This document shows positions 4,535 through 55,696 of a stretch of DNA of 64,000 bases, piece by piece. A program made the translations under genes and the position numbers. The DNA lies in contig OZ237736.1 of assembly GCA_965178125.1 (NCBI GenBank), positions 248,001 through 312,000 on the forward strand. Reading direction: 5' to 3'. Each line of letters begins with the position of its first letter. Position 1 is the stretch's first letter. The notes below the pieces were generated by a model, which was not told the DNA's origin, searched no databases, and saw only the letters and a program-made list of their open reading frames with translations. The DNA comes from Bilabrum cf. latius (Eukaryota).

Positions 4535-6994
4535 ATGCTACTTTTATCGATTATTACTGCTTTTGGAGTCGCAACGGCTGCTGCTCCCCCGCGGTCAATG
4601 GACCCACTGGTTTCCGACATCTCCACGCCAGCTACAGCATCAAGGCAGCCAGCATCGTCGCGATTCCCTGAAGCTTCCAACATAACTGGAGATGTTATCG
4701 TACTATCAAATGGTTTGGTAGAGCGCGTCTTTTCGATGCAGCCGGCATTCACGACTGTCGGACTGGACACGGGACCCAATCAGGATTGTTTTTGGGGAGA
4801 GAAGGTCTTGCGTGCTGTTGGCGCAGAATCCGTCGTTTCGCTCGATGGCCACGAGTACGCAGTCGGGGGGATGTAGTAGCAAAGCAGGGGCGTGCACAGC
4901 ATGGCTTGGATCAACCACAGTGAGCCGTACTCGGCGATCGAAGGCGCTTTCTCGCTCGTTTCCAGCAAAGTCGGCACTCCAGTGGCCCCGTTCCCTTGGC
5001 AGCCGGGCAGCCGCCACGCCCCCACGAACGTTTCATGGCCACCAAAGGGAGTTCGCCTTGTTCTGACGTTCGAGGCCCCGGGCTAGGTGGCGCTGCCCGC
5101 CCACGCTCACCTCCTGATCGATCTGGTTTTCGAGCTCTACCAGGGCTTCCCCGCCATGACCAAGCAGCTGCTTGCTCGCTTCGACCCGGGCAACCCGCCC
5201 CCCGCGGGGGCCTCCGTGGAGGTGTCCGCGGTATCGGTTGAGCTGCTGAATACACGGGTGGATTGGTCCCCCATGGACTTCAACCCCCAGGCGGGGGCAT
5301 CCTGGCAGGCCTCCGGGCTTTGGTCCCCCCCTGGGCTGTGGCCCGAGGGCAGGCCCATGGTGGGCGACTACTGGAACTCCAAGCTGCTGGTGCAGGCAGA
5401 CATCCCCCACAGCTCCTTGATTTAGTGGCAGTACGGCCCACAGACCACTGACAGCATCAACACTGGGACTCCGGGCATCCAGCAGCCGGTGCTGAACGCC
5501 ACCTACCTGCTGGGCCCGGGCGTGTCTGTGACGAAGACTGCGCCCCCCCCACCCGTCTCTCAGGAAGAAGCAGAGTCCAGGGAACAAACTGATCGGTACG
5601 GAGCGTCGCCGAACGTTCCCCGAGGAACCTTCGCGTCGTACCGCCCCCAGCTGCTGTTCGTCGGTCCGGCTGACCGGGAGCGCTTCGGCCTGCTGCGGCG
5701 GAAGCTGACGAGGCTGCTGGCCCCCGCAGCCATGGAGAATCCGCTGTATTTGAGCGTGACTGACACCTCACAGGCGGGGATTGCGCTGGCGGCGCAGCAG
5801 GCCGCCGACATTGGTTTCGACATGCTGGTATACTCGTTCGGGTCGGGCTTTAACATGGAGGACACGAGCCCCAGCTACATGGCGGAGATCGCCAACGCCA
5901 CCAAGTACGCCAGGTCACTTGGTCTGGAGGTGGGCGGGTACGACCTCATCGTGGAGGACAGAGGGCACGGGGGATACGGTGGGAACGTGGGCGACCAGTG
6001 GGATGTCGTGGATGCGGGCACGGGGGCGCTGGGCGCGGATGCGTGCTTCGCCAGCGGCTGGTACGACAAACTGGTGGGCATTTTCGACACGTTTTTGAAC
6101 GCCACGGGGATCACCAGCGTCATCACCGACGGGCCGTACGGCGGCTCCCACATGTCTTGTTCCTCGACCAACCACAGCCACCACAACGGGCTCGCCGACA
6201 GCGTGTACATGCAGACCCAGCACCAGGTGCAGTTCTTCAAGTGGCTGCTCTCCAAGGGCGTGTACATCCTGCAGCCGGACTACTACTTCTTCAGCGGGGC
6301 GCAGAAATCCGCCGTGGGATACAACGAGCAGCAGTACTCGCTGGGCCGCTGGATGGACCTTCACACCACGCGACTCGGCCTCTACTGGGACCTCGAGCAT
6401 TTCATCCCCTCCCAGGGCTGGGCCTTTGTGCCCTTGGTGCAGTACCACGCGGGAGGTGCCGCGGCTGCGTTCGAGCCACTTTCGGAGCATCTTCCCGAGT
6501 ACAGCTTTGCTCTGGGGCAGTACCTCTCCCTGGGCATAGGAGGGAACTGGAGAGGTGCGCGGCTGTACGACACTCCAGAGGTGCGGGAGGTGGCGAGAAA
6601 CTGGGTGCAGACGTACCGCAACTACAGCGACATTTTGCAGGCTGACGTGGTGCGCGTGCAGTACCCCACATTTGAGGGACTCGACTGCCAGATGCACGTG
6701 GACCCGTTCTTGCGGAACGGGCGCCGCGCTATCGCGGCTGTGTTCAACCCCACCGCTGCGGAACTCACCGAGACGATCAAGCTCCCCACCTACTACACCG
6801 GGCTGCAGTCCAGCGCGGTAGTCGCCGTGGGCGTGGGCGAGCGCCACGGCAAGCCCCAAGAGATGAGCATCCTCGATGGGGAGCTCAGCGTGCCCGTGAC
6901 CGTCGGCGGGCAGAACCTCACGTGGATCCAGCTGGCAGAGCCTGGGTCAGAGGAGGCCCGGGCCATGTTCTTGCGGTGGAGCCAGGGCGTTTGA
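4535..6994 (+). CDS. Secreted glycoside hydrolase, alpha-galactosidase-like (clan GH-D-like), 819 aa with TAG read as sense
   Basis: Signal peptide MLLLSIITAFGVATAAA. ORFs 4535-4876, 4892-5086, 5087-5425 and 5489-6994 share one frame and are separated only by TAG (4874, 4877, 5084, 5423). Motifs LSNGLVER, YSFGSGFNME, EVGGYDLI, TDGPYGG. Ends at TGA. Confidence 0.8.
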
Positions 6995-7433
6995 ACTTGT
7001 TCTGTGTGGTGAGTACGATCGAAGAAGAGTGGTGGCGGCGCTCTTTGCTTGTTTACGTTATGTGTGGTGGTGGCGCAGTGGATCCGCACCGCTGGCTGAT
7101 TCCGGCTTTTTGCTTGTTTGCGTGCGCCTGCATTTGGCGATGCTTGAGAACGAAAGATATTGCATTATTTGTACCGGAGGGTGTATTGATAACCACCACC
7201 CCTCATAGTATCCCGTTCATGCTCGTCCTGCTGATTTCGCTCCAAGCGATGGCAATGACAGACTGCACGATGGCCATGTGAGCCACCTGCATGCTTCGAG
7301 CAGGTGCCTTGCTCGCTCGCTCGAACAGGCCCAATGACCCGCACATCACGTATGAAGCTAGCATGGACACCATTCCAACGAGTGCGCTTCTCAGGTGAAC
7401 CTGCTACCATTCTTCCGTGTCGTGTTTGACGGC

Positions 7434-9150
7434 CTAGCTGTTTGCTCTGGCGTGGGCTTCGTGCAGCCGCTGCCTCTCGCCCAGGTCCGCTAACATCGAT
7501 CTGCGGACCAGATTCGCGTGGGCCCGCGAGCGAATCCAGGCTAGATGGACGCTTTTAGCCTTATACATTGTCCACATGAAGACCCAGTTTACGAGCACTG
7601 GAGCTGTCGCGTACAGGAATCCATCTCCGGCTCTTGACAACCCGTCAGCACCGATTTGACCTACCGGAAGCAAAACTTGCATTATTTGTCGTAGCAGAGA
7701 GTTATCAGGCTACCACTTTAGTTTAGATTCGAGTTTCCCCACCGCCATCGTTTCCTTAAAGTTCGGGTACAGTCTCCCGCCCGCTTCCAGGATCGCGAAG
7801 GCACTCGCCGTTCTTGCAACTGCCCACGCCGATGAATTCAGCGTAGAGGTGGCAAATGCTAGCGCTGAGTATGAGGATGATCGTCTTTGGTGCACTCTTT
7901 GGAATTCAATGCTTCCACGCGTGACACCCGAGCCAAGTAACTGAGATAGGACCTAGTAGCCCCCTGCAGCACCAAGGGCAAGGACCAGCTCCATTTTTAA
8001 GCCTGGCGTTAGAAATCGTTTGATGTATGTCGGAAATGTCGATGAATCGAGCGACATTCTCGCGCTGTTAGGAATTTGCAACCGTTCTCAATCATAGTTT
8101 TTCGAAACCGGAAGCCGACTCGGAGCTGCCGAGGTCCCCCCGAAAAATTGCCCACACGGTCGCATCAGGCAAGCAGGGCGCTTCCTATGAGGCCCATCAA
8201 CGTCTCGGCATGGGTCGCCCACACCTGCGTTCCGAACAGGATGGAGGAGGCCCACGTGCTCACTCCCTGCGACAGCTGGTACTTGGCTGACCGGAGCACG
8301 ACGCGGCCCGCCCACAGCAAGTGCTCCGTTCGGAGCTCTCCGACCCGCCGTTCCATGTCGCTCTCCTTCTTGGCCTTGCGCACGGGGTCTCGCTCTGCGT
8401 CTAGGATGTGCTTCTTCTGCTTGTTGATCCTCGCAGACTCCGTCAAGTACTCGGCCGCGATCTCTACCCAGTCGATCCCGATTCCAACCACGGACGGAAC
8501 CGCTCCGAGGTACAGGGCTCGGACAGCGTCCTGGTTGGCGGCGACGACCCTACCCGTCACCTGCCCGCGCCTCTTGATCATGTCGGACCTCTATCTTGGC
8601 AGCAGCACGGTGGCTGCGATCGTCAAACACGGTCTCAATAGAGCAAGCAAACAGTGGCCGTGGCTCACGCGGTACTATCAAACAGGAAAATGCGTCAGAC
8701 TCACGATTGAATAGACGCTTGGATAACGGCTTGTTGTAGTCGTGCAATCCTACCCAAATGGCATTGCAGAGTCCCGCGTGCATTGCGGACCTAAACAGAG
8801 GGTATGCAAGCCTGTGACCAAGCTTCTTTACAACATCAGAGCCGTCTTGCGCCCGTAAGGACTCGGGGTTCTAGAGAGCGTCCGTGTAGAACAATGCAGC
8901 CTCTTGAATCAGCGTCAACGCCAGCGATGTTCCTACGTACGACGCCACCTGAATAGCATCTCCGGGGTGCGTTTCACCTCCAGCAGGAACAAATTGCGAT
9001 TTAGACATTATTTTCCTGCTTTCGGTCGCAATTTGACCGGGAAGCAAACGAAGCGAATAGGCGGTTGCAACCATAGTTTGAAGATGATTGCAAAACAGTA
9101 CAGGTAGCGTGGAGACTTCGCGACATCAATGGAGCCAAAGTATTGAATTT
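7434..9150 (-). pseudogene. Degenerate LINE-like reverse transcriptase remnant
   Basis: Fragments in several frames with RT-like motifs: GHRLAYPLFRSAM (QG..LSP.LF-like), RALYLG, SILFGTQVW (thumb LYG..VW-like). Frameshifts and TGA stops present; boundaries approximate. Confidence 0.4.
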
Positions 9151-9354
9151 ACAAGCAAAGTGTGAGCCAGGCTCAATCCACGCAATCGCTAAGCCGGCAC
9201 AGGCCCAAGGCAGCAGAGACCACCGGCAGTCCGTAGGCAATCAAACCAACGGACACGCGCGGCGATCTCTCCTAAGCGATGATTCATATCACGCCCCTCG
9301 GAAACCACCTTCAGCTGAGCACGCGCGCGGAACCCAAAAGGAAGGTTCGCTCTC

Positions 9355-11239
9355 TCACGCGCTGGCCAGGGCCTTCACCATCTTGGGGAAGTCGGGGACG
9401 CCCCACCCAGTCACGGGGTCCCATCCCTTGGCGGCGGTGAAGCCCTGCGTGTTGCAGCCGGGGTTGTTCCCCGCAGTGATGTCCGTCAGGAAGTCGCCCT
9501 TGGCGCTGTACAGGGTGGGGTTGAGCCAGCCGAGGGAGCCCTTGCCGGCCTGGAAGCGGAGATCGTTGATCAGCGCGATCACTCCAGTGGCGATGGGGGA
9601 TGCACATGAGGTGCCTGACACGGGGAACTGGTTCCCATCGGCCACGATGATAACGTCCTCGGCGTACGCGGCGATGTCGGGGAACCCCGCGCCCGTGGCG
9701 TTGTAGTGTGACGAGTCCGGGATCGGCACCCCGCTGGCGAGGTACGCCTTGACCGCGTCGTCCTGGTACGAGGGCCTGGGCCAGTAGTCCGAGAACCCGC
9801 CGCTGCTCAGCCCGGCAGCCCGCACGTTGGAGGGATCCGTGCCGCCCACGGCGGTGACGTACGGCAGAGCGGCAGGGAACGTGGGGATGAACTTTCCCCC
9901 AGGGCACTGGGAGGGCTGGCCCCCCGCCACTCCGCCATCACCGGAGGAGAACATGATGGAGATGCCCCTGGCGCCCTGCTTCATGAACTCGTCCGAGACC
10001 CGCTTGCCGTAGCCGTAGTCCACCCCGGGCTCGTTGTCTCCGTAGCTGACGGAGATCGCCTTGGCCACGCGCTCGTCGGACTGACCCGCGACGTTGGTGA
10101 GCCACACGAGGAATGGCTCGTTCTCGGGGTTGTGCGGCTGCTGGCCAGCAGTAGACCAGGCGTCCGTGGGGACCTGGCTGCCGATGCCGGTGACGTACTG
10201 GATGTCCAAAGAGGCCTCGATGCCGGTCTGGGATGGTGGGGTAAATGGGCGTGTGACGAGTGGAGCGGGGTAGACTAGCAATCGAGGCGGCATGGAATTG
10301 GGTACACCAGTGCACCAATCTATGCACCGACCGCGCTGCAATACAATGCAATGTATCTATGCCAACGCAGCCACTCGACGGGCGCTCGAATTCACGCAGA
10401 ACGCGACAAGCCAATCGGATCGCTCGATCAAGCAGGCACCAATCGTCGAAACACAACGACACTCTCACCTGTCCGTCGTTGGGACCGAGCACGGTCGGGT
10501 TGTTCCCTGCGCTGTCGGGGGACAGCTCCTTCCAGAACGTCTCCAGGTCCTGCTGCTTCCAGAACTGGCCCAGGAAGGAGGCGATGGCCACGCGGTTCTT
10601 GGAGCTCTTGCCCTTGGCTCCCGGGCCGCTGATCCCGTAGGCGGAGCGGACCTCCGACGGGGTAATGCCTCCGTTGATGGGAGTAGAGCGGAGGAGGGGG
10701 CCCCTGTGAGTTGCGGGGAAGCGAGAGGTGGGCTCGATTACGGGCACGTGCTCGGCCACCGCGTCTGGGATGCTGAAGCCAGACGAGCCCACTCGAAGGA
10801 TCTCGTGGCCGTGCTCATCCGCGTACTTCTCGTACTTGCAGCCCAGCAGCTGCTCCGCTTGGTCTACCGTTAGGCTCATACGGATGAACCCTTCCCGGAG
10901 AAGCTCTGCATCAGAGGTGACGGCGTGCGTTAGGTTCGCCGATTGAATCCAGGAATCAACCGCAACGACAGCTTCAGCCGAGGGAGCCGTGAGCTCGCGG
11001 ATCTCCTGCTGCGTCATGTGCTGCAGGTAGCGAGGGCTTCCAGGCGTTGATACCGCGTACAAGTTCTCCTCGAGCTTGTCGGTGTTCTGGAGGGCCAGGC
11101 CTAAAACCATGTCGATTTTCCTGTCGCCCTCGGCACGTCCCGTGGCGAGCCATCCACGCTGGGCCTCGGAGCTGGGGCCCTGCCTAAAGGTGGCAGCCAT
11201 AGCTGATGTAGCAGCAAGCATTGCCATGAGTCCCAACAT
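9355..11239 (-). CDS. TPP1: Sedolisin / tripeptidyl-peptidase I-like serine protease (S53), 547 aa; exons 11239-10469 and 10227-9355
   Basis: Signal peptide and pro-kumamolisin-type prodomain (VSTPGSPRYLQHMT). Catalytic motifs GIEASLDIQY, SSGDGG, GTSCASP and C-terminal GWDPVTGWG. A phase-0 intron joins the two ORFs. No TAG codons; ends at TGA. Confidence 0.92.
10228..10468 (-). other. Spliceosomal intron (241 bp) in the S53 gene
   Basis: Donor CAG|GTGAGA and acceptor TCCCAG|ACC. Removal fuses GPNDGQ to TGIEASLD in frame. Confidence 0.85.
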
Positions 11240-11678
11240 CTTGTGCTGGACTGATATAGAATGATTTTGCAGGGCCGAAGGATCGCCGCGTAAAATAGCG
11301 GAACATCATCGAGTCGCCGCGCAAAATTGGTAGGTTACAACCGGCAACAACTAGATCTAGCTAGAGATCCGCCTTGGCTCCGTCACGCCTCCGTGCTTCT
11401 TGCCGCGAGGGAAAACGCTATTATTTCTTCCTTGGAACGGTAGTCATGCTGGAGAGCGCTGCAAGAGATGGGGATCTGGACAAAACTCCGGAGCGAGGTG
11501 GTGGACGGGGACGGCGAGACAGAGTGGTGGGTGCGCTGGTGGGTCCGCTGGAGGCAGCCAGGCTGGGCGATGATGAGGACTGCATAGAGCTGCTGTTTAA
11601 AATGGCTTCGAGGCAATGCATGTGAGCAGCACAGTCTTGTATGTATGACAGATTCTGTTCCGAACCATTCGCCGTGAA

Positions 11679-14033
11679 TCAGCCGCACCTGCCAGCCATC
11701 CAGGACAAGGCCGCGGCTTGCGCCTGCAGCGCCCTGACTTCGCTCTCTAGCAGTGCCCAGCCCTCTCGCACCCTCGAGTCTGTCTCTTTCTCCACCCCTA
11801 TCTTAAGTAACGACGCGTCAGAGCCTGCCGCAGCAGAGATGCCTGCCGACTCGCCGACACTTGTGGGCGAGCAGCGCCCGGTCGCTTCCAGAGCAAGTGC
11901 TCGAAGCACGCTGCCGTGCGGAGGAGGCAAATCCGCGGGCACTCGAAGCGAGAATGCATCAGTGGTGTCCTTGTGGGCACCGTCGTTGCCTGCTTTCGCG
12001 CCGCCGCAGGAAGGACCATCTGGCTTGCTCGAGCAGCAGCTCCTCGCTGCAACCAATGGTGACCCGCTGACGCCATCGCCATGCTCGGTCTTGCCACTTT
12101 CACCACCGTCGCGCGCGCCCCCATGCTCAGCAACCACTGGGGACATGCTGCGCCGGGGCTTGCCTTTAGCGCTCTCATCCAATGCACCGCTCGGTGACTT
12201 TGGTGTGCTGGCACTTCCCCTGGGCAGAGAGAGCACGAGGCAGACGAGAGTGGCGGCATGGGCTCTCTCTAGCTGCACCGCGGTATCACTCGTCACATGC
12301 CCGCCTTCCGGTTCGCCCGGTGAATCTGCGATTTCGACTCCGTTGTGACCCACTGCCCCCAGCACCTTCAGCGCGGGGGCTGCGGCCGCTGTGCCAGCTA
12401 AAGCCGCCGGCAAAGACAGGTGGTCCATGCTGCAAGCGCTCGTCACACGCCCACCATCGTCACCAGTGCTCTAGTTATTGCCCACATCCGGCACGGAAGG
12501 TCCGCAATCTGGCGTGCCGGCCAGCGCGCTTCGGACCAGCCGGAACAGAACCGATGCCTCGAGCGCCTGAAGAAGTTTCCGGGAATCGTCCGCGTGCCTA
12601 GCGCCCAGCAGCATCACCTCTGCCTTGTTGGAGTTGAACGAAGGGTCGCACCCCTACCTGGCTCCGTCTCTCCCCTTCTATGCGGCTGGAGAGGGTCCGT
12701 CCGTTGGTTCACTGACATTCGATGGTGGTTCTGCTGACCCAATGGAACGCCCTGAGAATCGGACGAGTTCGGGAACTCGCTCCACAGAGGAAGCAAGGCT
12801 AGCACCGCAGCACGATGACGAACCAGATGTGACTAGTGCGCCCGGCACACCGTCGCAAGCAGCACTTGGGAGCGGCGATGGCTGCTCGTGCGGGTCCCTC
12901 CTCCGCTGTGCTGCTGCCCCGCCAGCTTCCTCGGCGGCTGCGGCTGCTGCTGCTGCTGCTGCATCTAGATTCAGTTTGGCCACCCAGCAGCACCGTAATG
13001 CAGCGATGTACGCCCGGACGAACTGCCACACAGCGGCGTGGTAACGAGAGCACGGCTTGCTGGGGGCGACAGCTGCCACCTCGGTTGCTGGCAATCTAGC
13101 GGCTGTGGGCCCGCTGCCAGCCGCAACGGGCCCGCCATTCATGATCTGAATAATCTTCCGGAGCGCCTTGCGCAGCGCAGTTGCCTGGCAGCGGTCTTTC
13201 TTGACGTGCAGCTGAAGCGCACCACCGTGCGATGCACCCGGGGCAGGGGCGCTGCTTCCAAGAAGACTGGAGGCCTCGGGCTGGGGCTGGGGCGGCGAGG
13301 CAGAGGCGAATGAAGCTAGTTCTAAAAGCAAAAGGGGGGCCGCGGCCTGCCTTTGCAGATCCACCCAGCCTCGCGGAAGACCCGTGGATGGGTCGGGGAG
13401 TTGCATGGCGCGATGCAGGTCTACTACTGGCGCCCAGTGCGGGGGGAGCTTGAAGCGAGCAGAGTCCATGATCAGGACCGAGTCCGTCTCTGCATCGTAC
13501 GCTCCGATGGGACTAAAGTGTCCGTCGCCTGTCTGGTTAAGGATCTTCCTGGAATACGAGACGGCGAGCACCCTTCCCTCCGAGGTGGTGCAGGTGCTCA
13601 CGCAAGCATCTCGGAACGCTTTCAAGGACGGTGCCACGCCGCCTGTGGCTGCCTCTGGAGGAGGTCTGTTCACATTAGCTTTGGCTCCATTGCACGCGGC
13701 CAGGCATGCAAACTCGTCAAGTGTGATGCCATCCTTCTTGATTTCTTCCACGTCTTTGCAGCACGACAGCTGGTCTTCAGAAAACCACCTCCACACGCTC
13801 TCTCTCCATCGCTACCTGGGATCAACGCCCAAAGTATTTAATGCCATCACCAGCGTGGCCAGTCCACAGAATGCGGGGTCGTCCTGTGTCCGAAACTATG
13901 CAGCCAGTGGAAGGAAGCACTCTGCCGTGCCGTTCATCATTGCTCGCTTGAACCGTTCTCTACCTTCCCCAGATGATAGGTCTACACATGGTTCTTTCAA
14001 CTTTCGGCGGTAAAACCACGGTTTAGCTGCCAT
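11679..14033 (-). CDS. PCS: Phytochelatin synthase (gamma-glutamylcysteinyltransferase), 784 aa with 5 in-frame TAG
   Basis: FYRRKL...FLPLAA*FRTQDDPAFCGLATLVMALNTLGVDPR*RWRESVWRWFSEDQLSCC. Catalytic Cys, His (GDGHFSPIGAYD) and Asp (IMDSARFK) are present. The catalytic Cys lies between TAGs at 13896 and 13812. Ends at TGA. Confidence 0.93.
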
Positions 14034-14168
14034 GGCTTCGTGAATTTTAGATGTGAAGCAGTTGCCGTCGGTCGAGCTTGGTGGGGGTTCCTTCCGGTTC
14101 AATGGAGGTTCGTTCGGAAACTTGAAAAAGGCTCTATCCAAGACCAAAAAGTTCATCACAACAGCCCC

Positions 14169-17100: not shown

Positions 17101-18725
17101 CCCCCCTCGGCAGTGCGGTGGTTGGGTCGCGCCCCCGCCGCAACTCGCATGTCCGCCGCGTCGTGCTGCTGCAAAACAGCGGGCGTGAGCTGATTCCGCC
17201 TCTTGCTTCGAATGGCCCGCGGCACCGTTGAGCCTCTCGGCAGCTCTGCATAGCCAGCAGCAGCAGCTGCAGCGGTCCTCTTTGACGCAGTGGCAGTCGC
17301 CGCGCCACCCGCGCCCGTGACCGGACGATAGCCGTGCTGGATCGAGTTGGCCTTCCTGGCCACCTGCTCAACGGACACATCGCAGTCCCGCACCCACGAC
17401 CCGACAGACGCGATCATTTCGCGGGCGATGAGACGCCTCCCCTCCTCCCCTTGTTCCCTGGACGCGGCCTCCTCCAGCCTGTGCCTCGCCGCTCGCACCG
17501 CCAGCGCGAACCCCCCCGTGCCGCTGCCCATGACCGCCAGGTCGAGTCGCTCGCCGCGGGCACCATACCCCCCGGCGCCCGGCACGATAATCCTCTTCCG
17601 GCTCGTGTCGTTGGGACCGTCCGCGTCCTCGTCCGCACCGCTATATTTCTGATCCACCGGTGGAACAGCAACGATGGCCTCCACGTCGTTCCTGCCCTTG
17701 GCCCACAAGCCCGCGCGGAAGAGCTCTCTTTCCGATCGCACCACGGTCGCGCGCTCTGCACCTCCCCATAGGCGCATAGCAGCCGCAGCTGCCACGGCAG
17801 AGATGGCTGGGATCCCGATGCAGGCGAAGGCTATGACCAGACGCTGCGTGCTGAACAGCCCGTCATTGGTGTCACCCGAACCACCGTCCCCCCCTCTCGC
17901 TGCCCGCTTCTCTCTGCCCACCTCGATCATGCCCAGCTTGAACACGCCCAGCAGGACCAGCAATAGAGCCGACAGAGCAGCCGCCCATGCGGCCCAGGTG
18001 CTCTCTCTCGCCTGCATCGCGTCGCCCCTGTCGAACACATCCATGGCGATGCGCTGCCGGCGGCGGGAGGCGGCGGCATCTAGGGCACTTGCATCGCGGC
18101 TGGCGCCGCGCGAAAACTTGCCATCTACATTGTCTGGATCGGATCGGAAGCAGCTGCAGCAGACCCACGTCTTGGACAGGCCGCGGCAAAGCCAGCGGCA
18201 GTCGCACTGCCAGCAGCACTTCGAGCCGCGCATGCACGTGCCGCAGATCCAGCACTGCGCAATGCACAGCAGCACTGCAAAGAACATACTAGATACGTAC
18301 GCTATGTCAAGCAAGGAGGTCCTCACACCGACGTCAGATATCGACCAGAGCACCATTTCCAGGCCGACGTCCATGGTGTTTCCAACAACATTTCCGAGCC
18401 ACGACCGCTCCCCATTCCCGATGCCGTTGAATGCAAGCATATCCGTAAAGTACGTGACTGTTGGAGAATCACCATCCGCAGCCGAAGAATCTGTCAGGGA
18501 CGCAGCCTCGTACATGAACAGGGCCACGCTGCACACGAGCCCAACTATTGCAACCAGCTGCAGAGGTGTTTGCGCCGCCCAGGCGAAAAGTAGCCAGAGA
18601 ACAACGAAAAAGCTGCCGAATACCAGCATTAGCCCCGCCAGCGGTCCAAGCACAGCCATGATCACGAGGCGCTACAGCGAGGATGGGCTGCTTTTTGTCC
18701 CTTGCTTAGGATAATTCTGTGCCAT
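14169..18725 (-). CDS. ABHD4/ABHD5(CGI-58)-like alpha/beta hydrolase with an N-terminal multi-pass membrane region and long insertions, ~1518 aa
   Basis: One frame through TAG at 18672, 16206, 15597 and 14382. Motifs VVLCHGFGQGAG, DWGGMGGSSR, IAAHSLGGYLA, FMYGGSHDWM and SGHHLYCEQ; the last lies beyond a TAG. Ends at TAA. Confidence 0.85.
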
Positions 18726-18910
18726 AGTCAGTCCGATCGCCTGATATTATTACAAACTACAAATTTGAAGTGGAAAGCAGATCGAAGCTAGTAAAATGGT
18801 GGTGCCACGGTCCTGAATCTGCCAAAAGCCAGTTTCTCCAACTTTGTTTTCATCTTCATAATTATCAGAAGACAAAAGGAAGGCTGTTTCCGCTGTGTAC
18901 ACCTACAAGT

Positions 18911-20436: not shown

Positions 20437-20438
20437 AG

Positions 20439-43600: not shown

Positions 43601-46600
43601 GTCTGCAAGCACAGATGCAGGTGCAGGTGCAGGAGCTGGTGGTGGTCTAGGTCTGTAGATCCGCGCTCCCGGCCGCGATGCGGGCCCGGCGCCGTCTGCA
43701 AGCACAGGTGCAGGGGCAGGAGCTGGCGGTGGTCTAGGTCTGTCGATCCGCGCTCCCGGCCGGGATGCGGGCCCGGCGCCGTCTACAAGCACAGGTGCAG
43801 GTGCAGGGGCAGGAACTGGCGGTGGTGTAGGTCTGTCGATCCGCGCTCCCGGCCGGGATGCGGGCCCGGCGCCGTCTGCAAGCACAGGTGCAAGTGAAGG
43901 AGCTGGCGGTGGTGTAGGTCTGTCGATCCGCGCTCCCGGCCGGGATGCGGGCCCGGCGCCGTCTACAAGCACAGATGCAAGGGCAGGGGCAGGAGCTGGC
44001 GGTGGTTTAGGTCTGTCGATCCGCGCTCCCGGCCGGGATGCGGGCCCGGCGCCGTCTGCAAGCACAGATGCAGGCGCAGAGGCAGGAGCTGGCGGTGGTC
44101 TAGGTCTGTCGATCCGCGCTCCCGGCCGGGATGCGGGCCCGGCGCCGTCTGGAAGTACAGATGCAGGCGCAGGGGCAGGAGCTGGCGGTGGTCTAGGTCT
44201 GTCGATCCGCGCTCCCGGCCGGGATGCGGGCCCGGCGCCGTCTGCAAGTACAGGTGCAGGCGCAGAGGCAGGAGCTGGCGGTGGTCTAGGTCTGTCGATC
44301 CGCGCTCCCGGCCGCGATGCGGGCCCGGCGCCGTCTGCAAGCACAGGTGCAAGTGAAGGAGCTGGCGGTGGTCTAGGTCTGTCGATCCGCGCTCCCGGCC
44401 GCGATGCGGGCCCGGCGCCGTCTGCAAGCACAGGTGCAAGTGAAGGAGCTGGCGGTGGTCTAGGTCTGTCGATCCGCGCTCCCGGCCGGGATGCGGGCCC
44501 GGCGTCGTCTACAAGCACAGGTGCAGGTGCAGGTGCAGGAGCTGGCGGTGGTCTAGGTCTGTCGATCCGCGCTCCCGGCCGCGATGCGGGCCCGGCGCCG
44601 TCTGCAAGCACAGGGGCAGGTGCAGGTGCAGGGGCTGGCGGTGGTCTAGGTCTGTCGATCCGCGCTCCCGGCCGGGATGCGGGCCCGGCGCCGTCTGCAA
44701 GCACAGATGCAGGTGCAGGTGCAGGAGCTGGTGGCGGTCTAGGTCTGTCGATCCGTGCTCCCGGCCGGGGTGCGGGCCCGGCGCCGTCTGCAAGCACAGA
44801 TGCAGGTGCAGGTGCAGGGGCTGGCGGTGGTCTAGGTCTGTCGATCCGCGCTCCCGGCCGCGATGCGGGCCCGGCGCCGTCTGCAAGCACAGATGCAGGT
44901 GCAGGTGCAGGAGCTGGCGGTGGTCTAGGTCTGTCGATCCGCGCTCCCGGCCGGGATGCGGGCCCGGCGCCGTCTGCAAGCACAGATGCAGGTGCAGGTG
45001 CAGGAGCTGGCGGTGGTCTAGGTCTGTCGATCCGCGCTCCCGGCCGCGATGGTGCTGGACATGGCGTTGCAAGCACAAACCAGCAGAGTAATGTGGTTGT
45101 TGATGGGGCGGGAGATTCCATACAGAAGTCTACCAGTGGGCTTTAGGATCAGTCCGCAGTGAATATCAGCTCGCCAAAGGCCTACCTAGTGGACGTGTAG
45201 CCGGCATCGGCGTCTCAAGACGAAGGCTCGCATAGATCACCTGCCGCCACCCTGACTGAATTCGTTCAGTAGGATGCCAAGGATGCTGCGAGTTAGGTTC
45301 GAAGGTCGGACAGCTGGAGCAGCGAGATGTTCGATTCGATTGCAGGCGTGGCGCACCGCGGGTCAAACAAACGCCTTGGCGGCTACCGGCGTGTTTTACC
45401 GAACCAGGACATTGGAAAATCGCTTGGCCTCTACGCGAGGCACAAAGCGGGATCTCCTTCCGATTGGTCATCAGTATCTGGCTCCAGCCTCGGGACGAGG
45501 GAGGAAGAGGACGGGGGCCGGCCAGCTGCTCTTTGGCTATCGATCCCGCAGAATGGCCCTGACTCCTGGTCCCGATCGCTGAACCCAGTGGCTGATTCGC
45601 ACAAGAAGCTTGAGAGACTTTCTCGGGTGTAGTCGGAGATGTCGGGCTCGCTCCATCGGTAGTCGATGCATGGTGGAGTCAGCAGTAGAGTCGGGAAGGT
45701 GGCAGCCGGCATTCAAACCGGTGGTTTCCTGACCGCCTCAACGAGCAACTTGGACACGCGGTAGAGCCGCGAACAACACGCTGCAGCGAGGTTAGGACAA
45801 CGTACAGCTGGCGGTAGCCCAGCCGACATGGACGCTCACGGCACTTTGCTCGAGGCCCTGCAGACACATGTCAGCGATTCCTCGCCTGTTCCTTCTGGGC
45901 CCTCCGGTGCCGTTCGGCGATTGGGCTCCGACTCATCCACGGGGACCCCAGCGCAGGATCAGGAGGACCCAGTGGCCCCTTCGACCACTAAGGGTGCTGC
46001 TGAGGGCATGTGGGGCGCGTCTGTGGTGGTCTCATAGCTTACCGAGCAGACCAGAACCCCGGATATTTCGGGCCCAGCGGGGACAGCGGCCAAGGATCTC
46101 GAACGTATGCTGGAATGGATGCGGCCGCACGCAGAAGACCTGCAGCTGCCTCCAAATTTCGGGGGACGGGAGGGGCCCGGGGGGCTGCTCCTTCGCTGGA
46201 GCTCCGTGATCCGAGCCGGTCTCGTGTCCGGCAGTGGTGCTCTGTATCGGTCTGGCGGGTGGTCTGGAGCTGGCGCCCTTCCGTTCTGGGCTCGTACTCT
46301 GAGCGTGCTGGCACCTGCTCAGCCCTCACACGCTGTACCGCACGGTTTCCCAAGGAACCGAATCGTCACGCTGGGGCGGAGCTCTTTGCTGATGAGCGAG
46401 CGAGAGGACAAGATTGCTGCGGCGGAAGCGATGGTCCTCTCCGCGGGACGGGCCGCAATGACGTCAGCGGGTCATGCTGCAGTCCTATTGAGCCGAGAAG
46501 CGAAGCATCTGCAGGAGGAGTTTCTCAAGAAGCTGAGCCAACACCAGGATGCCACTGAGGGGGCTGCCCAGAACGAGTAGAGTGACGACGCTGACGGCAA

Positions 46601-49600
46601 CAGTGACGCTATCTGGCAGACAGATGAAAACGCTCCAACTTTCAAGACGAGGCGTTAGCGCAGCAAAGAAGACTCCGGTGGCACTTGGACTGACACTGCA
46701 GGTGCGTTCAGCGCGCAAGGTCAGGATAGCGCACCGAATTCCGCAACTCTGCAGCCAGCCCCAATGCACCGCCGCCGAAGCGAAGGCATGCAGTTGTCTG
46801 GTGAGAGCTCACCCACACTGGACGTGCCAGTGGGAGCAGAACCAGCCACCACTGAGGATGCAGGCTCGGCCCGAAGCTCATCGATGTAGCTTCGGCGTCC
46901 CCTACCAGCACCCCCTGTAGCGGCCAAGAATGACTGGTCGTCTTCAAGCACGAGCTGGCAGACAAAATCGGATCATCGGAGAACATTCAACGTGTTTGTG
47001 GGTGCATATCGGGCAGCAAAGTCGTGCCTAAAGCTGCTAAGCACGATGCCGATCGACGTCACTCCGCCCATTCTGGCTCACCTCGGCCCTACGGGGATGC
47101 ATCGCCTTAGTTTGCAGCTACGTCGCATTCGTGCGGGTGCTCGAGTGGCTGCGCGACAGCTTCCCGAGTCCCAGCCAACGGAAGGCACGGCCGATTTGCT
47201 TCCATGGCCTACTTGCAGACAAGGCATCCTTCATGCCAGTGGGATCGTTCGGACACTAATTGCCACCATCTCTAGCGTTGATGCTGAAAAGGCGCGGGCG
47301 ATCGTGTCTCGCGCTACCAGTGTCGCTAACCGCACGTAGGCCCGTTCAAACGATGCACTGAAGCAGCTGGAAGCCAGAACCAGACGCCAGGAGCACGCGA
47401 GGCAGTACGTCCGCCCGCAGACCACGCTGAGAAGGAAGCGCGGATACACGCACTCGGACGCGATGGGTGGTCTCCAGCTATCGCCAACCGGTGGCAGTTC
47501 CGTAGGAAGCGGGAAAGCAGGCCGGCGCCCCGCCTTTGCCTCTGTTGGGTCCGTCGGTGACGAAGTACCTGAGGGCGTGGCAACCCGCACGGCGCCGTTC
47601 TCCTCGCTGCAGGCCGGGCTTCTGTCTACGCAGAGAGATGAATCAGACCGCAGTATGCCTACTTCTCCGGGCGGTAGCCCACACAAAGCCGATGGCCATG
47701 GGCCAGATTTCCGCGGCTTACCTGCTGTGAATGAGGACGATGACGATAGGCTACTCGATGCGGTAGCAGCAGAGGGGGGCACTGTCAATCGCGACAACTC
47801 TCACGCAAGCAGTGCTACCGTGTCAGCGGAATCATCGGACGCGACTGATCGATCACAGGATGCGCGTGTCGGAAGCAAGAAGATCGGCTCTCCGCGCCTT
47901 GCCTTTCTTGGGGTCAGCGAATTCGACAGGATGCTGGCAAGCAGCGATATAGCGACAGCGGACCCTCGTCGAGACGAGGACCCGTTAGCAGACAATGTCA
48001 ACGATGGCGATGAAAACGATCTTCAGCTGCCTGAGTCGACACGAGGAAGGGAAATACCTACGGACGCAAACGGGAATGTATCGCACGCAGATTCGATGCC
48101 CTTTGACGCAGTTGCGCCGCTCGGTAGGGAAGCGGCCCAGCTGTTCCCATTCAGGCAGCGGAAGCGTGGCAAGGGGACTTTGCTGTTCACGCTGCGTGAA
48201 GGCCACTTGCAGGAAGAGCAGGGCATAGCGAAGAGGTCGGGAAGACGGACGCGCAAGCTGAAATCAGGGCGGCCGTCTACCCCAGGGGGTGCCCTGGCAA
48301 AGAAAAGGAGAGCAATGGCCGCGTCATATGCATGGGACGAAGCAGAGGCTGGCGACGCTGCCGATCCTGGCGACCCCGGTGACCCACAGGATGCGACACC
48401 GAGCCCTGGCTCCGGCTCAACCGACTCTGGTGCTGGCGACCGGAGCAGTCCGCGGAAGCGGGGGAGGCGGAATAGGAGCGGCAAGGAGGGCGCGATTACA
48501 GAGTCAGAGTACGAGTCGGCGGACAGCGGCGGTGCGACCACGCCCGGCGGTGGTGACTCTGCAGGAGACGATGAAGGCGACGATGACACTGACAGCACGG
48601 CTGCCTCCATCACTCGCATGCACGGGGACGGTCCCAATGGGCTGGGTTCTGACCACGACTCGCTCGGGGGTGATGACGACGGCGACGACGGCGATGACGC
48701 GATCAACCGACGTGACTCGCTCAAGGTCATGACTCCACCCATCGATCGCACTGGAGATGCAGGGTCGTTCGAACCTCGTGGTTCAGAGCCATTGCCAGTG
48801 ATGCAATCCTTTGACAGGTCGAGGCAGCCATCACGGAGGGCAGTGGAGGAAGAGCTCAATGTCGCTAGCTCAGATTCGGACTCTGGGCCTGACGTGTCGG
48901 GGGGACGTGGCAGTTCTCTTGGTATCGCAATGCCGCGCAGTGGATCAGCTAACCTGCAGCGCATCCGCCTGGCGTCAGCCTCATCGGTGTCAACGCAGCA
49001 CAAGGTGGAGAAGTGGAGCAAGTACAAAGGGGCTCTCCGCAAGGCCTTGGCGATTGGGAGGTTTAGAGCCGGAGGGAAGAAACGGCGAGCAGTGTCGACG
49101 ATCGAAGGCGCGTCGGGCAGCGGTACAGACCAGTCATTGCACGGCAGCGTTGGCGCGGGCGGCCCTGCAGTATCGCTAAGACTGTAGGAGATCGCGTATC
49201 GCGGTCGTGCTGACAGCACTGACAGCTTTGGGTCGTTTGCTGATTTAGAGAGCCACGGGGACGCGAATCAGTTCGGCTCTGTTTCTTCCATGCACCGCGG
49301 CGGCAGTGCAGGTGCGGAAAATGCCCGGGGTCCGTTTATGTCGCACCCGTCCCGAACCCACTCATTGGGCCGAATCAAAGAGACGCTGCTGCTCGGAGGG
49401 TCTAACGCGCAACCAGCAGCGCCCGTAGAAACAACGGGAGCTGGTGTCGACGCAGCCACCAACGGACCAGCGCTGATGCGTAACGGCAGCTTCTCCTCCC
49501 GCGCAATGAACAGGGAGCGGCGTGGCTCCAGGCTGAAAAATCTGGCCGCCACAGCCAATGAGATCGCGAGGCCGCCTAGTGCAGCACGGCTGAGCTCTCT

Positions 49601-52600
49601 CGAGAGTTTCGGTGATGCTAGCAGTATTGCTAGCTCGGCCTCCTCCTCGGCATCCATCGGGCGCTTGCCGAGACGGGTCAGCGAGATGCCAGGTAGCGAT
49701 GACAGGGATGCGGCCGTGACGATTGCGCAGCTGCAGATGAACTAGCCTGATCCCTCACGGGGTGAACCTGCTTCGGGATAGGCTGCCGGAGACCCCGGTA
49801 GTGCTCCGCCCCAAGGAAGCATGGAGCTTCCCCAATTCGAAGACGGCAGGCACAGGCAATCGTTCCAGAGCGCGGCCTCCGATGCTTGGGAGCAGGTCAG
49901 CAGACACGCTCCGACCACAACGCGGCTATCGGATCAGGCTGTGATCTCAATCTGGGTGGCTTCGGGCACGGTCGCCGCCCTGTGCGCGGCCACGTACGAT
50001 GCAGCCACTTTCATCTCGAAGGAGGTGGCGGCTGCGATGGATCCAGACGCCTGGTCGGATGCGGTGGAGAGGGCAGAGAAACAGCACATGTCTGGGGCGC
50101 TCGTGCGTGGAGTGCAGTACGATGACCTGCGCTGGGCCCACGAGGAGCAAGAGCTTTCGCAGATCGTGGCGCGGGCAGAGCTGGGCCGCATGCGCAGAGA
50201 TCGCAACAGGGCGGCAGTGGCGAATTCTGGTGCTGCCAACATCCCGCCAGCGGGGTCGATTCTTGGTGTTGGTCCCAGCCTTGACCGCGTCGGTGGCGGC
50301 ATGGCGCACGACTCGGAAGTTGTGGAAGTGTCCGGGGCCCGGAGTGGCAGCGACGGCTTGCAGATCTAGTCCAGGTCGCGACTGACTTCTGACCTGGGGC
50401 CCAGCACACCCCAAGCAGGCGAGCTGACCGGGGGATCCAGCGCGCCAAAACTGACGAGAGCGCGATCCATTTCGGACCATACGTCGTCGGCTGATACGGA
50501 CAAGCTGCGCCGAGAGGTGCAGGAGAGGGCGGCAGCACGTGGTCCGCTGCGCCCGGCACCTCGGATGCTTGCTAGAGCTGACGCTGCCAACCTCATGGAT
50601 GCTCCGGGCAAGTTCAGGCTCCTTCGGTCCGTCCGGGTTGCTGAGAGGTGCGCGGTGCATAGGACGCGCGCCACCACTCAGCACGAGCTCGCGCTGTTCA
50701 TGCCTCGTCGGTGGTTCAGCAGGGCCATACTGGGTCCTGCTCTCGACTTGCAGCGAGTATCTGTGTCTGACAAGGCTGCGGTTCTGCTGCAGGGAGTTGC
50801 CGAGAACCTGCTGATCCGACTAGTTCGACTGGCGCGGCGGCTCAGCGAGCATCACTCAGTCCATCCAGCCACGGAGCGACGGCTGGAGCCGGGGGACCTT
50901 AGGCTGGTATGTGCCATGAGGCTGGGGTGGCACCACGGAGATGCGACGGTGGACACGGGTCTGGCTGGCGGTGCTGGCGGGGGCGTCGCGCGGTCGTAGC
51001 AGGTTTGGTCCGCGCAGGGCAAGCAGAGGCAGGCCGTGTCCCGGGACAGCTCGTACACCACGAGAGGAGGCCTCAATGCCCGAGGTGGCTTCCCTAGGTC
51101 TCGAGGAGACGAGTCCAACTTCGAGGAGATGCAGAACGTGATCCCCAGGGCCCTTCCTGTGGTTCCGTACCTGCCGACCAATAACGCCCCCTTGCGAGCG
51201 AATGGGCATAGGCTCTTGGTGGCAGCGCACACGGCACTGCTGCAAGGGCGACAGAAGGTCCGAGATCTCAACGGATAGCCCAAAGACCCGGAGCAGGTCA
51301 TGCTAGAGGAGGCAGCGGTGTCTAGACTAGAGCGATTGCACGTTTCGCTCAGGTCTGCTTCTCTCGTGAAAGGCGTCGGCCGTGGCAGCATCAAGCAAAG
51401 CGACTCTACCGACGTCCGGGCCGCGTTAGGGCTCAAGGACTACAGGTCTTCGCCAAGCCAGCCAGCGAATTCGAATCCGTGTCCCGCAGCAGAGATTGGG
51501 GGTCTAATCATCGTGTCGGCGCTGCCCGTGGCGGTCTTGCAGCTCCCCGGCTTCCGCGGAGGCCCCCCTCCTCCACCCAAGCTGTACTCTAAATCGGGCC
51601 TTGCTGATGCCGAGAGCGTGCTTCACGTCAGTCGCGCACTTACTGCTTTCAATAGGCCCCCGATGGGATCGCCTGCCCGTTCGGAGGGTCAGTACGACAG
51701 CGACGGGGGCGCCCCCGTCACGCGGGACGAGAACATGGCCTCTGCGCTGCAAGGCATTGCGCTTGCCAGCTGGCTGAGGCGGGGCAGTACAGGGGTCGAC
51801 TCAGTGCACGGGGGCAGCGGATTTTCCACAGGGTCGTCGTGCGGTGCACTGTTGAACGCGTGCGTGAGGACGAGGAGCGAGCCAGGAGACGCGTAGTACA
51901 ACGACGTCCGGAAAGCGCTCTCTGTGATCCAGCTGTAGCAGAGCGATGGGTCGCCAACGGCGATAAGAAGCGGTCCGGAAGGCCAGGTGGAAGTGGACAG
52001 TTTCACCGACAGCGAATCTGACGACTCGCGAGGACAGGATGGAGACAACTTAGTCTAGTCGGTCAGCCCCGACGGTAGGGCGCCAGCAGACACCGCACAT
52101 AGCACGCCTGCTGATTCCGCAGCCCAAACGCTCACAACAGTTCGCAGCGCCAGAGAGGAAGCATCCCTTGCAGGTGCATCAGGTGATGCGAGGGATGGCA
52201 AGCACGGGCAGGAGCTGGTCAGAGCTGTGCTCCCAGCGACCTCGCTTGGGTGTCAGGCCAGTGAAGAGGCGGCAGAGACCCACGACGTGATGCTGCTTTG
52301 TGAGGCGCTGCACCTAGGAGGCGTCGGTGGTCACACAATGCACTGCCGAGGACTGCTCCGCAGCCATAGCGGCGGTCAATGGCAGCAGCAGACCCCGCAG
52401 AATGGCGGGGGCGAGACTGCAAGTGCCGCGCAGTGGACCGAGGCATCGTGGAACGACGATGCAGGCGAGGCTGCGTTCGGCACAAGGTCCACGGCGGGCA
52501 CTCTGCACGAAGACGACGCGGAGGAAGAGGAGGAGAGGCAATCAAGGAACAGGAGGGGGCGGCTGTCCTCCAGCGCGGTGGACCACGAGCAGAGCGGGGT

Positions 52601-53663
52601 GCCTCCCAGCCTTGACATCGACACGGACGTCGCTGACTTTGACGAGGGAATTCGGGGAGGCCCGAGCCAGGGCAAGGTCAGGATCTCCTCGGACGTCGTG
52701 TACCGGGATATCTCTCCTCGCAGGGAACAAGAGGACGTGGATCACGAGCCGCTCGCTGTGCTGCTGCGACCAATAGTGATGCAGGCCGCTCTGACATCAG
52801 CTGCCGTCAGGCTGACGCCAAGGGGGTGCGTGGAAGCGGCGCAGGACGGTCGCAAGGGGTTCTCACCCACGGAGCAGGTCTGCAGCAGCCCGATGCTGGT
52901 GATGTACCACTGGGCCTGCGGATGGCACGGTGACCACGCGTCGCGATGGTGGCAATCGTCACACCCCTGTCTGCCGTCTGTTGTTCCCCGACCCCTCGCA
53001 AGCCCGAGGCTCTCTCCCGAGGTGTCCTCTTTGCACGCGAGCCACGCCGGCATGGTGACTCTGGGCGCGGCGCCGGTTCCGCAAGGGATGGCTCCACCCG
53101 CAGTGCCCAGCAGGACGCGACTGGGAAGCGTTGAATCCGCGGAGGGCGCGGAGGAGGAGGAGGAAGGGGGGCCGGAGGTGGACGACAGAGCGCCACCTGG
53201 CAGCGGCGCGGCGGGCCGGCGCGCGGGGCTCGGGGTGGGATTCGTGGCACCACCACGCCCTGCCCGGGGCGATGGCGGTGCAGGAGCAGGTGCTGGAGGT
53301 GCTCTGGAGTCGCCTGCGTCGTCTGGCTCCGGATCCTCCGCGTCGCCGTCCAGTGCCGTGGGGCAATCTGTTGCCCAGGCGAGCCTGAGCCCAGGGGCTG
53401 TGTCTCTGCTGTGCGAGGCTGCGAGCGCGCGCGCTTTTCGGCTGTTGCGGGCCGCGCGGATTGTGGCGCGGCATCAGGCGGGCAGGGTGCAACCGAGTGG
53501 GGAAGGTTCGCCGGGTTCGTCGGCGTCGCAGGGGGACAGGATCGAGCAGTGGTGCGTAAGCGCCGCGTCTGTTGACCTGGCTGCAGTAATTTCGCTGTAG
53601 CCGACGTGGGATGCGGAGGGTGAAGAGGTCTGGAAAGAGGGCAGGGGAACAAGAGCCTGGTGA
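37644..53663 (+). CDS. Giant (~5280 aa) largely disordered protein with several histone-fold-like segments and an internal tandem repeat; one intron at 39867-40028; ~37 in-frame TAG
   Basis: All ORF pieces from 37671 to 53600 are in one frame, linked through TAG only. The single TGA (39882) lies in a predicted phase-0 intron ATG|GTGAGG...TCGCAG|CAA. Terminal TGA at 53661. Start is 37644 or 37671. Confidence 0.8.
39867..40028 (+). other. Predicted spliceosomal intron (162 bp)
   Basis: GTGAGG donor, T-rich body and ttctcgcag acceptor. Removal eliminates the only TGA and keeps the frame. Confidence 0.65.
43420..45050 (+). repeat. Coding minisatellite, ~18 units of 87 or 93 bp encoding (GAGAGAGGGLGLSIRAPGRDAGPAPSAST)n
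   Basis: The core ggtctgtcgatccgcgctcccggccgggatgcgggcccggcgccgtctgcaagcacag recurs, and unit lengths are multiples of 3. Confidence 0.95.
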
Positions 53664-53773
53664 ACGCAACAGGCGCCATTTGTAGCACGGAGAGATCCAT
53701 GGATCGGATCAAATCCTTTTTAAAGTTCCGGGTTGCTTCCGTCAGTCGCCAGACAACGCACTCTTATTCAAAT

Positions 53774-55696
53774 ATGACTAACGTTGGAGAGTATGCAGCA
53801 TCTGCTGCAGTTGCTGTATTTCAATTCGGGCTGTTCGGCCTAGTTGGAGCCGTTTTCGGCGTGTTTCCGCGCCCGGAGGGCCTACTAACGTAGGCTCGGC
53901 TCAAGGCATTGTCGAATCTCACATTGTATTTGTTCTTTCCGTCCTTTTTACTGGCAACGCTGGGATCCACGGTCACAACGGAGATTCTACTTAGCTCTGT
54001 AGCTATGATTATTTGGGCGATAGTCCACCTAATCCTCGGATTAGGTCTCGCCTACTGCATATCGTCGCTAATTGCGGTTCCAGAACACTTGAGGGCAGCA
54101 TGGATGCTAGCTGCAACATTCCAAAATGCTGGGAGCATGCCTCTGCTCCTGTTGCTGCCTCTCACTGCTTCGCCCGAGTTTGCTCGATACGCGCAGCAGC
54201 AGGCGGATGAAGCCAATGCGCGGCGAGCGGATGGTGAAGCCATGCAAGAGCCGGACTCTGCGGAAGATATGTATGCTAGAGCAACCACATATATTTTCCT
54301 GTATACAATCATATGGCAGAGCGTGTTTTGGGGCATCGGTTACAGATTTGCGGAGCATGATGCGATACTCCAGCAAGCCAACATTGCACAGCAACAAGCC
54401 CTGACCGATGGACATGGCCGAGACATGCATAACGAGGTAGCCACAGGGGCTAGATCTGCGAATGACGTAGCTGTTGTGGAGCTATCGAGCCGCTCAGATG
54501 GTGCTGGGCATCACGCGCCAGGGGAGATGAGAGAGCGCTAGCTGGGAGGACGCGGAGGCCCAGGCTCGTCTGATCAAAATGCAACTGCCAGCAGTAGTGG
54601 CGGTGTTCTGAATGACAATACACTACCAAATAGTGGCATCGCGCATGAAATCACTCGGTCTGAGTCCAGGGTGCCCCTTCGAGAATCGAACTCCGGGACC
54701 CACCTGGCGTCCTCGGGGCGAGCAGCAAACGTTGCCAGTGGGTTGGAGATAGGGACCCCCACCGAATCAGCTAGACTCAGGGGCGAAGCTCCGACTCAAG
54801 TCGAAGTTGATGGCGCCGAGCAACAGCAGGGAGGTAGCCGCCAGGACCATCCCGGTGACCCCACAGGTGGGGCTGGTGGGGCTGCAGCAAGAGGAGGATT
54901 CTCTTCACATACGTAGGCATCGGCCGGGCCAGTGCCAACTCAGGAACAAGGGAAGTCGGGCGGAGCCAGGCAAAACGCATAGCAAGTCGCAGGTGATGCC
55001 TAGAGCGGGCTCTGTGGCTCGTGTCTGTCCACCATGCAGAAAGCGCTCCTCACGCCGCCAGTGGTAGCAGTGGCCGGAGGCATCACGATAGGATTGATCA
55101 CGCCCCTAAGCTCGGCTCTTTTCGAGGACGGCGGGTCGCTGAAGATTTTCGGCGACGTGATGATTATTGTGGGTCAGCCCGCCATCCCTGCTTCCAACGT
55201 GGTTCTTGCAGGAAGCGTGTACCACGGGATTGTGGCAGCCTCGAATGCCCTTGGCTGCGGGCCGTGGGTGCGCAAAGCGTGGCAATCATGCTGCTTCACG
55301 CGAGAATTGGCACGCACATCAAGTGAAAGTGATACAGATAGTAATGAGAAGGAAAAGGAGAAGATCCACCCGCAGCTGTTCTTGGCGGGCAGCGTGCTGT
55401 GCGCGTGGAGGCTGCTCGGGTTCCCGGCGATCGCACTGGGGCTGTACTACCTAGCTAGCTTAGCAAATTCTGGTCTGCTAGGGGCCTCCAATGACACGGA
55501 TCCTGTGCTCCGCATGGTGATCGTTACACTTGGGTCTGTGCCCAGCGCTTAGTTCTGCCTGATGGCTTGCTCGCAGCTAGGTCTCGCAAGGGCATCGGCA
55601 GAGCTGGCGCTGGTGTACGCCGCGATGTATCCGATGAGCCTTCTGACGCTCATGCTGTTTCTCACGCTTGGGATGCTGCTAGTGTTCGGGTCGTGA
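53774..55696 (+). CDS. Auxin-efflux-carrier / PILS-like membrane transporter, 640 aa with 6 in-frame TAG
   Basis: Motifs LSNLTLYLFFPSFLLATLG, ATFQNAGSMPLLLL, LLTPPVVAVAGGITIGLITPL, GQPAIPASNVVLAGS and VPSA*FCLMACSQLG. Two transmembrane bundles separated by a long loop; ends at TGA. Confidence 0.88.

Follow-up and report, generated by a model that had tools for sequence, protein, structure and literature searches.

Genes and open frames of the window

The window analysed here is a 64-kb stretch of contig OZ237736.1 (56-64% GC, zero N), and our subject is the codon UAG, which occurs in frame, as TAG in the DNA, within otherwise intact protein-coding genes. The DNA behaves as nuclear, eukaryotic, GC-rich and intron-poor, in keeping with the first-pass annotation of this stretch, and two introns are borne out by RNA contigs within the 20 kb that were compared (4466-24465). 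Nine genes between 4535 and 55696 hold 76 in-frame TAG codons in 12,997 codons, with 0 internal TAA and 0 internal TGA. The pattern is the one first described, while the earlier manual count of about 78 is revised to an exact 76. The nine genes, together with a candidate intron and a tandem repeat that lie among them, are as follows.

4535-6994, + strand: gene for a GH-like secreted protein, 4 in-frame TAG codons (two of them adjacent), TGA stop
11679-14033, - strand: phytochelatin synthase (PCS) gene, 5 in-frame TAG codons, two of them in the catalytic domain, TGA stop
14169-18746, - strand: ABHD-like hydrolase gene of 1525 codons, 4 in-frame TAG codons, TAA stop
22696-25461, - strand: multi-copy repeat-family gene of 921 codons, 5 in-frame TAG codons, TGA stop
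26700-28478, - strand: gene for a VTT-domain membrane protein (Pfam VTT_dom, 1.7e-08), 3 in-frame TAG codons, TGA stop
30479-37297, + strand: 2272-codon open frame, 12 in-frame TAG codons, TGA stop
37617-39884, + strand: 755-codon open frame, 4 in-frame TAG codons, ending in TGA and in the same frame as the 4562-codon gene
39867-40007, + strand: candidate 141-nt GT..AG intron (GTGAGG..CCGAG), a multiple of three in length, which would join the 755- and 4562-codon frames
39975-53663, + strand: 4562-codon open frame, 33 in-frame TAG codons, TGA stop
43437-45051, + strand: 93-bp tandem repeat inside the 4562-codon gene, 17.7 copies, 92% matches
53624-55696, + strand: gene for a Mem_trans (auxin-efflux-carrier type) membrane protein, 6 in-frame TAG codons, TGA stop

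Several of these genes have recognisable domains on which the position of the TAG codons can be judged. The Pfam match of the PCS gene (PF05023, E 9.7e-74) spans two TAGs, and a Cys lies 10 codons downstream of one of them; this residue, ten after PCS residue 46, we take to be the catalytic Cys56. The GH-like protein belongs to no Pfam family, and has 90 homologues at E<=1e-10 (best identity 50%), of which one, from a bacterium, bears the name alpha-galactosidase; the region aligned with these homologues extends 520 codons beyond the last TAG. In the ABHD-like gene, where the Pfam match is weak and under the Pfam cut-off, the motif 'HSLGG' lies downstream of three TAGs and 'GHH' downstream of all four. 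It had been claimed that catalytic motifs lie downstream of TAGs or between them, and this is borne out for the PCS Cys, the ABHD motifs and the aligned region of the GH-like protein. The Mem_trans protein matches PF03547 (3.8e-21) over residues 83-668, and its TAGs lie upstream of most of the match. A search for its homologues returned none at E<=1e-8 among 8000 candidates, a search that was probably swamped by low-complexity words, and a PDB sequence search with the protein gave 0 matches. The 2272-codon frame contains a conserved domain (34979-36100) that belongs to no Pfam family and has 805 relatives at E<=0.001; Pfam searches with four of these relatives found 0 families, and a PDB sequence search with 34979-36478 gave 0 matches.

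The first-pass annotation had also described one frame of about 16 kb running through about 37 TAGs. The interval 37617-53663 is indeed a single reading frame with 37 TAGs, but two stops break it, TGA at 39882 and TAA at 39972. As read from the sequence, these two codons may lie inside the candidate intron 39867-40007, or else the interval may hold two genes with 90 nt between them.

UAG as a sense codon

The distribution of stop codons between frames sets TAG apart from TAA and TGA. The two other frames of the nine genes contain TAG 222, TAA 78 and TGA 456 times per 25,994 codons, and within the coding frame TAA and TGA are wholly excluded while TAG is found at 5.8 per 1000 codons, compared to 8.5 out of frame. 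The effect on open reading frames is specific to this codon. Stop-to-stop frames reach at most 821 codons with the standard code, a length that stays the same with TAA read as sense and rises to 1028 with TGA read as sense; with TAG as sense, the longest frames reach 4562, 2272, 1525, 921, 842, 829, 755 and 690 codons. If TAA also encoded glutamine, about 23 in-frame TAA codons would be expected from the 107:358 ratio of CAA to CAG, and 0 were observed (Poisson P about 1e-10).

Runs from four studies contain this DNA, and we compared four runs (X1, X5, X7 and X8) over 4466-24465 as assembled contigs, not raw reads, a form in which rare variants may be lost. Depth is present in 30 of 30 bins for X1, X5 and X7 and in 23 of 30 for X8, and none of the four runs has a differing letter listed between 4466 and 21344. 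The contigs of X5 and X7, which come from two studies, skip two stretches of the window. Both skips read CT..AC on the + strand, that is GT..AG for genes of the - strand, and both introns begin with GTGAG and end with CAG. They lie in two genes without a place in the list above.

7203-9125, - strand: unnamed gene, GT..AG intron of 91 nt at 8614-8704, reading GTGAG..GCAG
9355-11305, - strand: sedolisin (S53 peptidase) gene in two exons, intron 10228-10468, no TAG, TGA stop

The intron of the sedolisin gene, 241 nt long, had been predicted from the reading frames before the runs were compared and was then found to be skipped in X5 and X7, while a DNA contig of X1 runs unspliced across both 8614-8704 and 10228-10468. 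Because of these intron-skipping joints and of contigs that are the size of genes, we read X5 and X7 as RNA. This reading has a point against it, in that an automated guess calls X5 'probably DNA' and that none of the runs listed as containing this DNA is recorded as RNA, X5 and X7 being tagged 'RNA?' as a guess. One contig of X5 has a poly-T loose end at 21279.

The contigs of these two runs retain the TAG codons. In X5, contigs at 4514-7171, 11760-12925 and 14116-18806 are colinear with the window, show 0 other letters and take in 4, 3 and 4 TAGs, 11 in all; in X7, contigs at 14168-16407 and 16392-18801 are likewise colinear with 0 other letters and cover the four TAGs of the ABHD-like gene. 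Since spliced, colinear contigs are without differing letters, the TAGs are unedited in mature mRNA. Transcripts in which the TAGs are lacking or edited had been named at the outset as evidence that would speak against a code change; the spliced contigs keep at least 11 TAGs and show 0 other letters at them. For these covered sites (at least 11), editing, introns and assembly error are excluded.

The same data bear on the alternative that the code has not changed at all and that the TAGs result from assembly or sequencing errors, pseudogene decay, RNA editing or isolated programmed readthrough. We found no evidence in its favour, with RNA data that span 4466-24465 as contigs. Errors are opposed by the letter-for-letter agreement of the runs of four studies, and editing by the TAGs that the spliced RNA contigs retain. 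Decay would also yield TAA, TGA and frameshifts, and the complete lack of these in 12,997 codons counts against pseudogenes, while 33 readthrough events in one gene are not plausible. We consider an unchanged code extremely unlikely. That UAG is a sense codon in this DNA, on the other hand, seems to us almost certain, and there is good support for the wider statement that UAG is sense while UAA and UGA serve as stops. It comes from the statistics of the frames, the alignments with homologues, the spliced RNA contigs in which TAG is retained, and the stops in use, and it bears out the first-pass annotation.

Termination at UGA and UAA

Within the window, to which these counts apply, TGA ends eight of the nine TAG-bearing genes, and the sedolisin gene as well; TAA ends one of the nine, the ABHD-like gene. 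Beyond this TAA, the RNA contigs of the gene extend for 53 nt in X5 and 1 nt in X7, a faint hint at most. It has to be weighed here whether the code might be ambiguous, with UAG read as sense within genes and as a context-dependent stop for some of them, as in Condylostoma, karyorelicts and Blastocrithidia. Frames delimited by TAA and TGA would let a terminal TAG escape, and this counts against a purely sense reading of UAG in that a TAG used as a stop cannot be seen in them. The last in-frame TAG lies 21-523 codons upstream of the stop, and the lower value comes from the 4562-codon frame, where the last TAG is just 21 codons ahead of the TGA and could be suspected of serving as a terminator. 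In the other eight genes, however, the distance is 48 to 523 codons, and the GH-like and sedolisin genes, both with many homologues, end in TGA. Nor is there a pronounced preference for the base that follows TAG (C 24, G 21, A 16 and T 15 of 76). An ambiguous code appears quite unlikely, slightly more so than a different amino acid at UAG.

The amino acid encoded by UAG

Alignment with homologues was possible for eight of the 76 TAG sites, and log-odds for each amino acid were summed over them against background. Within the PCS gene, residue 46 is Q in 113 of 120 homologues and S in 1, while at residue 74 the homologues carry R 95, Q 8, K 6 and V 6 times out of 120; the three C-terminal TAG sites of this gene lie in low-complexity sequence and are unalignable. 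The four sites of the GH-like protein comprise residue 114 (I 20 and R 11 of 63), residue 115 (Q in 40 of 64 ungapped rows, with S second at 8), residue 184 (S in 27 of 62) and residue 297 (R 14, Q 10 and S 9 of 90). The last two sites belong to the conserved domain at 34979-36100: residue 81 aligns with P in 27 of 37 ungapped rows among the 47 best matches, its three nearest relatives carrying N, T and A, and residue 188 is variable (L 9, T 4, V 4, Q 2). The sum over the eight sites is positive for Q only, at +2.15 bits, followed by S at -6.9, N at -8.1, A at -9.1, T at -9.8, R at -11.2, V at -13.4 and P at -13.8; with only the first six sites, Q reaches +6.7 and S -4.0.

Four points weigh against glutamine. 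GH-like residue 184 is mostly Ser; residue 81 of the domain is mostly Pro; with only 8 of 76 sites aligned, it is chiefly two conserved Q columns that favour Gln; and at one codon of the 93-bp tandem repeat, which encodes a unit of 31 residues rich in Gly and Ala, 17 copies carry TCG, for serine, and a single copy carries TAG (43656). Both the first and the last of these would suit a UAG that is sense but specifies another amino acid, with Ser as the best alternative and Leu also considered. Ser ranks second in the summed log-odds and is the second residue at GH-like position 115, and codes with UAG as Ser (the green alga Scotinosphaera) or as Leu (the rhizarian exLh) exist elsewhere (PMC11687900). 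The single TAG copy of the repeat says little on meaning, though, since TCG and TAG differ by one base only. PCS residue 46 is S in only one homologue, Ser falls 9 bits below Gln over the eight sites, Leu is outside the eight best residues listed (the eighth being at -13.8), and in the PCS tree described below the window protein falls beside Cafeteria, apart from the green algae that were included. An amino acid other than glutamine is therefore unlikely in our assessment.

Given that the codon is sense, glutamine is very probably its meaning, judging from the aligned columns, and the first-pass suggestion of re-annotation with NCBI table 15 (TAG=Gln) finds its support in Gln having the best summed log-odds. 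On this basis UAG makes up 14% of the Gln codons here (76 of 541). The full reading, in which UAG is Gln while UAA and UGA are stops (a code of the NCBI table 15 type), we regard as likely.

By analogy with other reassignments, UAG would be decoded by a tRNA-Gln(CUA) or by an altered near-cognate tRNA-Gln, and recognition of UAG by eRF1 would be lost or weakened, while UGA, as the main stop, and UAA would still end translation. The eRF1 motifs that would be concerned are GTS, NIKS and YxCxxxF of the N-domain (PMC5304391). Within the 64-kb window, ARAGORN found no tRNA genes, there were no Rfam matches, and eRF1 is not among the genes.

Relatives and placement

A FastTree phylogeny of the PCS domain, from which rows with <150 aligned residues had been removed beforehand, places the window protein in one group with two unnamed proteins and Cafeteria roenbergensis (support 0.989). 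This is one gene, and the placement that it suggests, with Cafeteria-related organisms (stramenopile/bicosoecid), is only a lead from a single gene tree. For the GH-like protein, the matches that bear names come from sponges and a choanoflagellate. A metagenome scan for PCS relatives gave only loci at 44% and 30% identity among the matches listed, and a search of the Atlas with the sedolisin returned S53 peptidase clusters only, with no taxonomic signal. No rRNA or housekeeping gene was seen in the window, and the translated frame at 21270-22000 gave nothing recognisable.

The conserved domain of the 2272-codon frame has closer relatives. The nearest of them are short fragments from uncultured organisms, at 48-71% identity, and several come from the same piece of DNA: one contig of 9744 nt encodes P0224 (141 aa, 71%), P0244 (91 aa, 67%) and P0248 (155 aa), and one of 6746 nt encodes P0278 and P0226. 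Three variants of P0224, on other contigs, terminate at the same residue. As the fragments come from single contigs, the orthologue that they represent is interrupted by in-frame stops when read with the standard code, and this recurs across several independent assemblies. If no indel is assumed, the interruptions fall opposite K132, Q163 and Q232 in the protein encoded by the window. They would fit a UAG = Gln code shared with these relatives. An IMG/VR locus that matches P0224 was rejected as a relative, being AT-rich, of standard code and unrelated.

It is possible, at somewhat less than even chances in our estimate, that the window comes from a lineage of heterotrophic stramenopiles near Cafeteria in which UAG was independently reassigned to Gln, a change so far undescribed and common to the uncultured relatives. 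In the literature searched, whose coverage is incomplete, we found no report of nuclear UAG reassignment in a stramenopile or bicosoecid, and a published description is possible.

Other features of the window

The repeat-family gene is set apart by its copy number, with a contig depth of 56-1110 in the X1 DNA run compared to about 13 in the flanks. The interval 22475-23141 is the high-copy part, with a summed contig depth of about 1110, and many contigs break there. Among the copies, 8 of 13 variant letters are synonymous in the frame that reads TAG as sense, and 0 of 13 fall on a TAG. The family looks to be under purifying selection, to judge by its mostly synonymous variants. This high-copy family has in-frame TAGs just as single-copy genes do.

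The sedolisin gene contains zero TAG across about 570 codons. It matches the Pfam families Pro-kuma_activ (6.7e-31) and Peptidase_S8 (2e-07), and its third-position GC of 0.75 and 0.90 is the highest among the genes here. Judging by this gene, strongly codon-biased genes may avoid TAG.

The ABHD-like and PCS genes are tightly spaced at 14033-14171, with 135 nt from the TAA of the former to the ATG of the latter, and the two are in frame with each other. The RNA contig of X5 that covers the ABHD-like gene stops 83 nt short of the PCS start codon.

Towards the ends of the window, a frame on the + strand at 1-603 runs off the left end and carries 'YADD', a motif typical of reverse transcriptases; it has no Pfam family at E<=0.01. 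Pfam searches of ten more flank frames found 0 families. One further frame lies outside the range of the first-pass annotation and bears TAG codons.

59949-61862, + strand: 637-codon open frame, 3 in-frame TAG codons, TAA stop, no Pfam family at E<=0.01

From its motifs only, which resemble those of PIF1 or Helitron-type helicases, this frame looks helicase-like.

Implications

An annotation made with the standard code would cut genes such as these to pieces, and the proteins of the uncultured relatives are already stored in this form in public collections, so that re-annotation with TAG = Gln is called for. The window offers a GC-rich case with TGA as the main stop for which DNA and RNA runs are already public. 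A further non-ciliate lineage would be an independent data point on the uncoupling of UAG from UAA and on the co-change of eRF1 and tRNA-Gln. If the organism is a stramenopile near Cafeteria, this would be the first nuclear code change in stramenopiles, and also a rare case of UGA, not UAA, as the main remaining terminator in a GC-rich genome. The novelty depends on the identity of the organism and on any prior report by those who sequenced it.

Comparison with known codes

Nuclear codes that split UAG from UAA are few, and the codon table proposed here is already known elsewhere. Those given there are exLh (Leu), Iotanema (Gln), Scotinosphaera (Ser) and Protocruzia (Gln), along with an uncultured ciliate (UAA = Lys, UAG = Glu) and phyllopharyngeans (Gln twice, Leu) (PMC11687900).

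Iotanema spirale (Fornicata) resembles the window in that UAG alone is reassigned, apparently to Gln, with UAA kept and UAG a minority Gln codon. For Iotanema, PMC5304391 gives 204 in-frame UAG codons in 126 genes, stops of UAA in 104 and UGA in 15, UAG as about 8% of Gln codons and a T32G change in eRF1. The two differ in the balance of stops, mainly UAA in Iotanema (104 of 119) and TGA in eight of nine genes here, and the window is GC-rich, with UAG at 14% of Gln codons compared to about 8%. The PCS gene tree also places the window with Cafeteria and not with a fornicate.

Ciliate macronuclear genomes are typically AT-rich and have very short introns. The window is unlike them in being GC-rich over 64 kb, in its very long low-complexity proteins and in its introns of 91 and 241 nt. 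In the codon table itself, Protocruzia tuzeti and two phyllopharyngean lineages are the same as the window (PMC11687900). The codes of exLh and Scotinosphaera, from the same source, are like that of the window in having UAG uncoupled from UAA in a non-ciliate nuclear genome, but they differ in the amino acid (Leu and Ser, respectively), whereas the window gives +2.15 bits for Gln and -6.9 for Ser, with Leu not in the best eight.

Two further groups share the reading of a stop codon as Gln. The UAR = Gln codes (NCBI table 6 type), used by hexamitin diplomonads, Streblomastix, Amoeboaphelidium, ulvophytes and many ciliates, reassign UAA too; in the window, by contrast, in-frame TAA is absent against an expectation of about 23, and two frames terminate at TAA. 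The 'code 15' phages have TAG = Gln with TAA and TGA as stops, as proposed for the window, but do so by suppressor tRNAs in bacteria of standard code, whereas the window is eukaryotic nuclear DNA with spliceosomal-type GT..AG introns and a poly-A trace.

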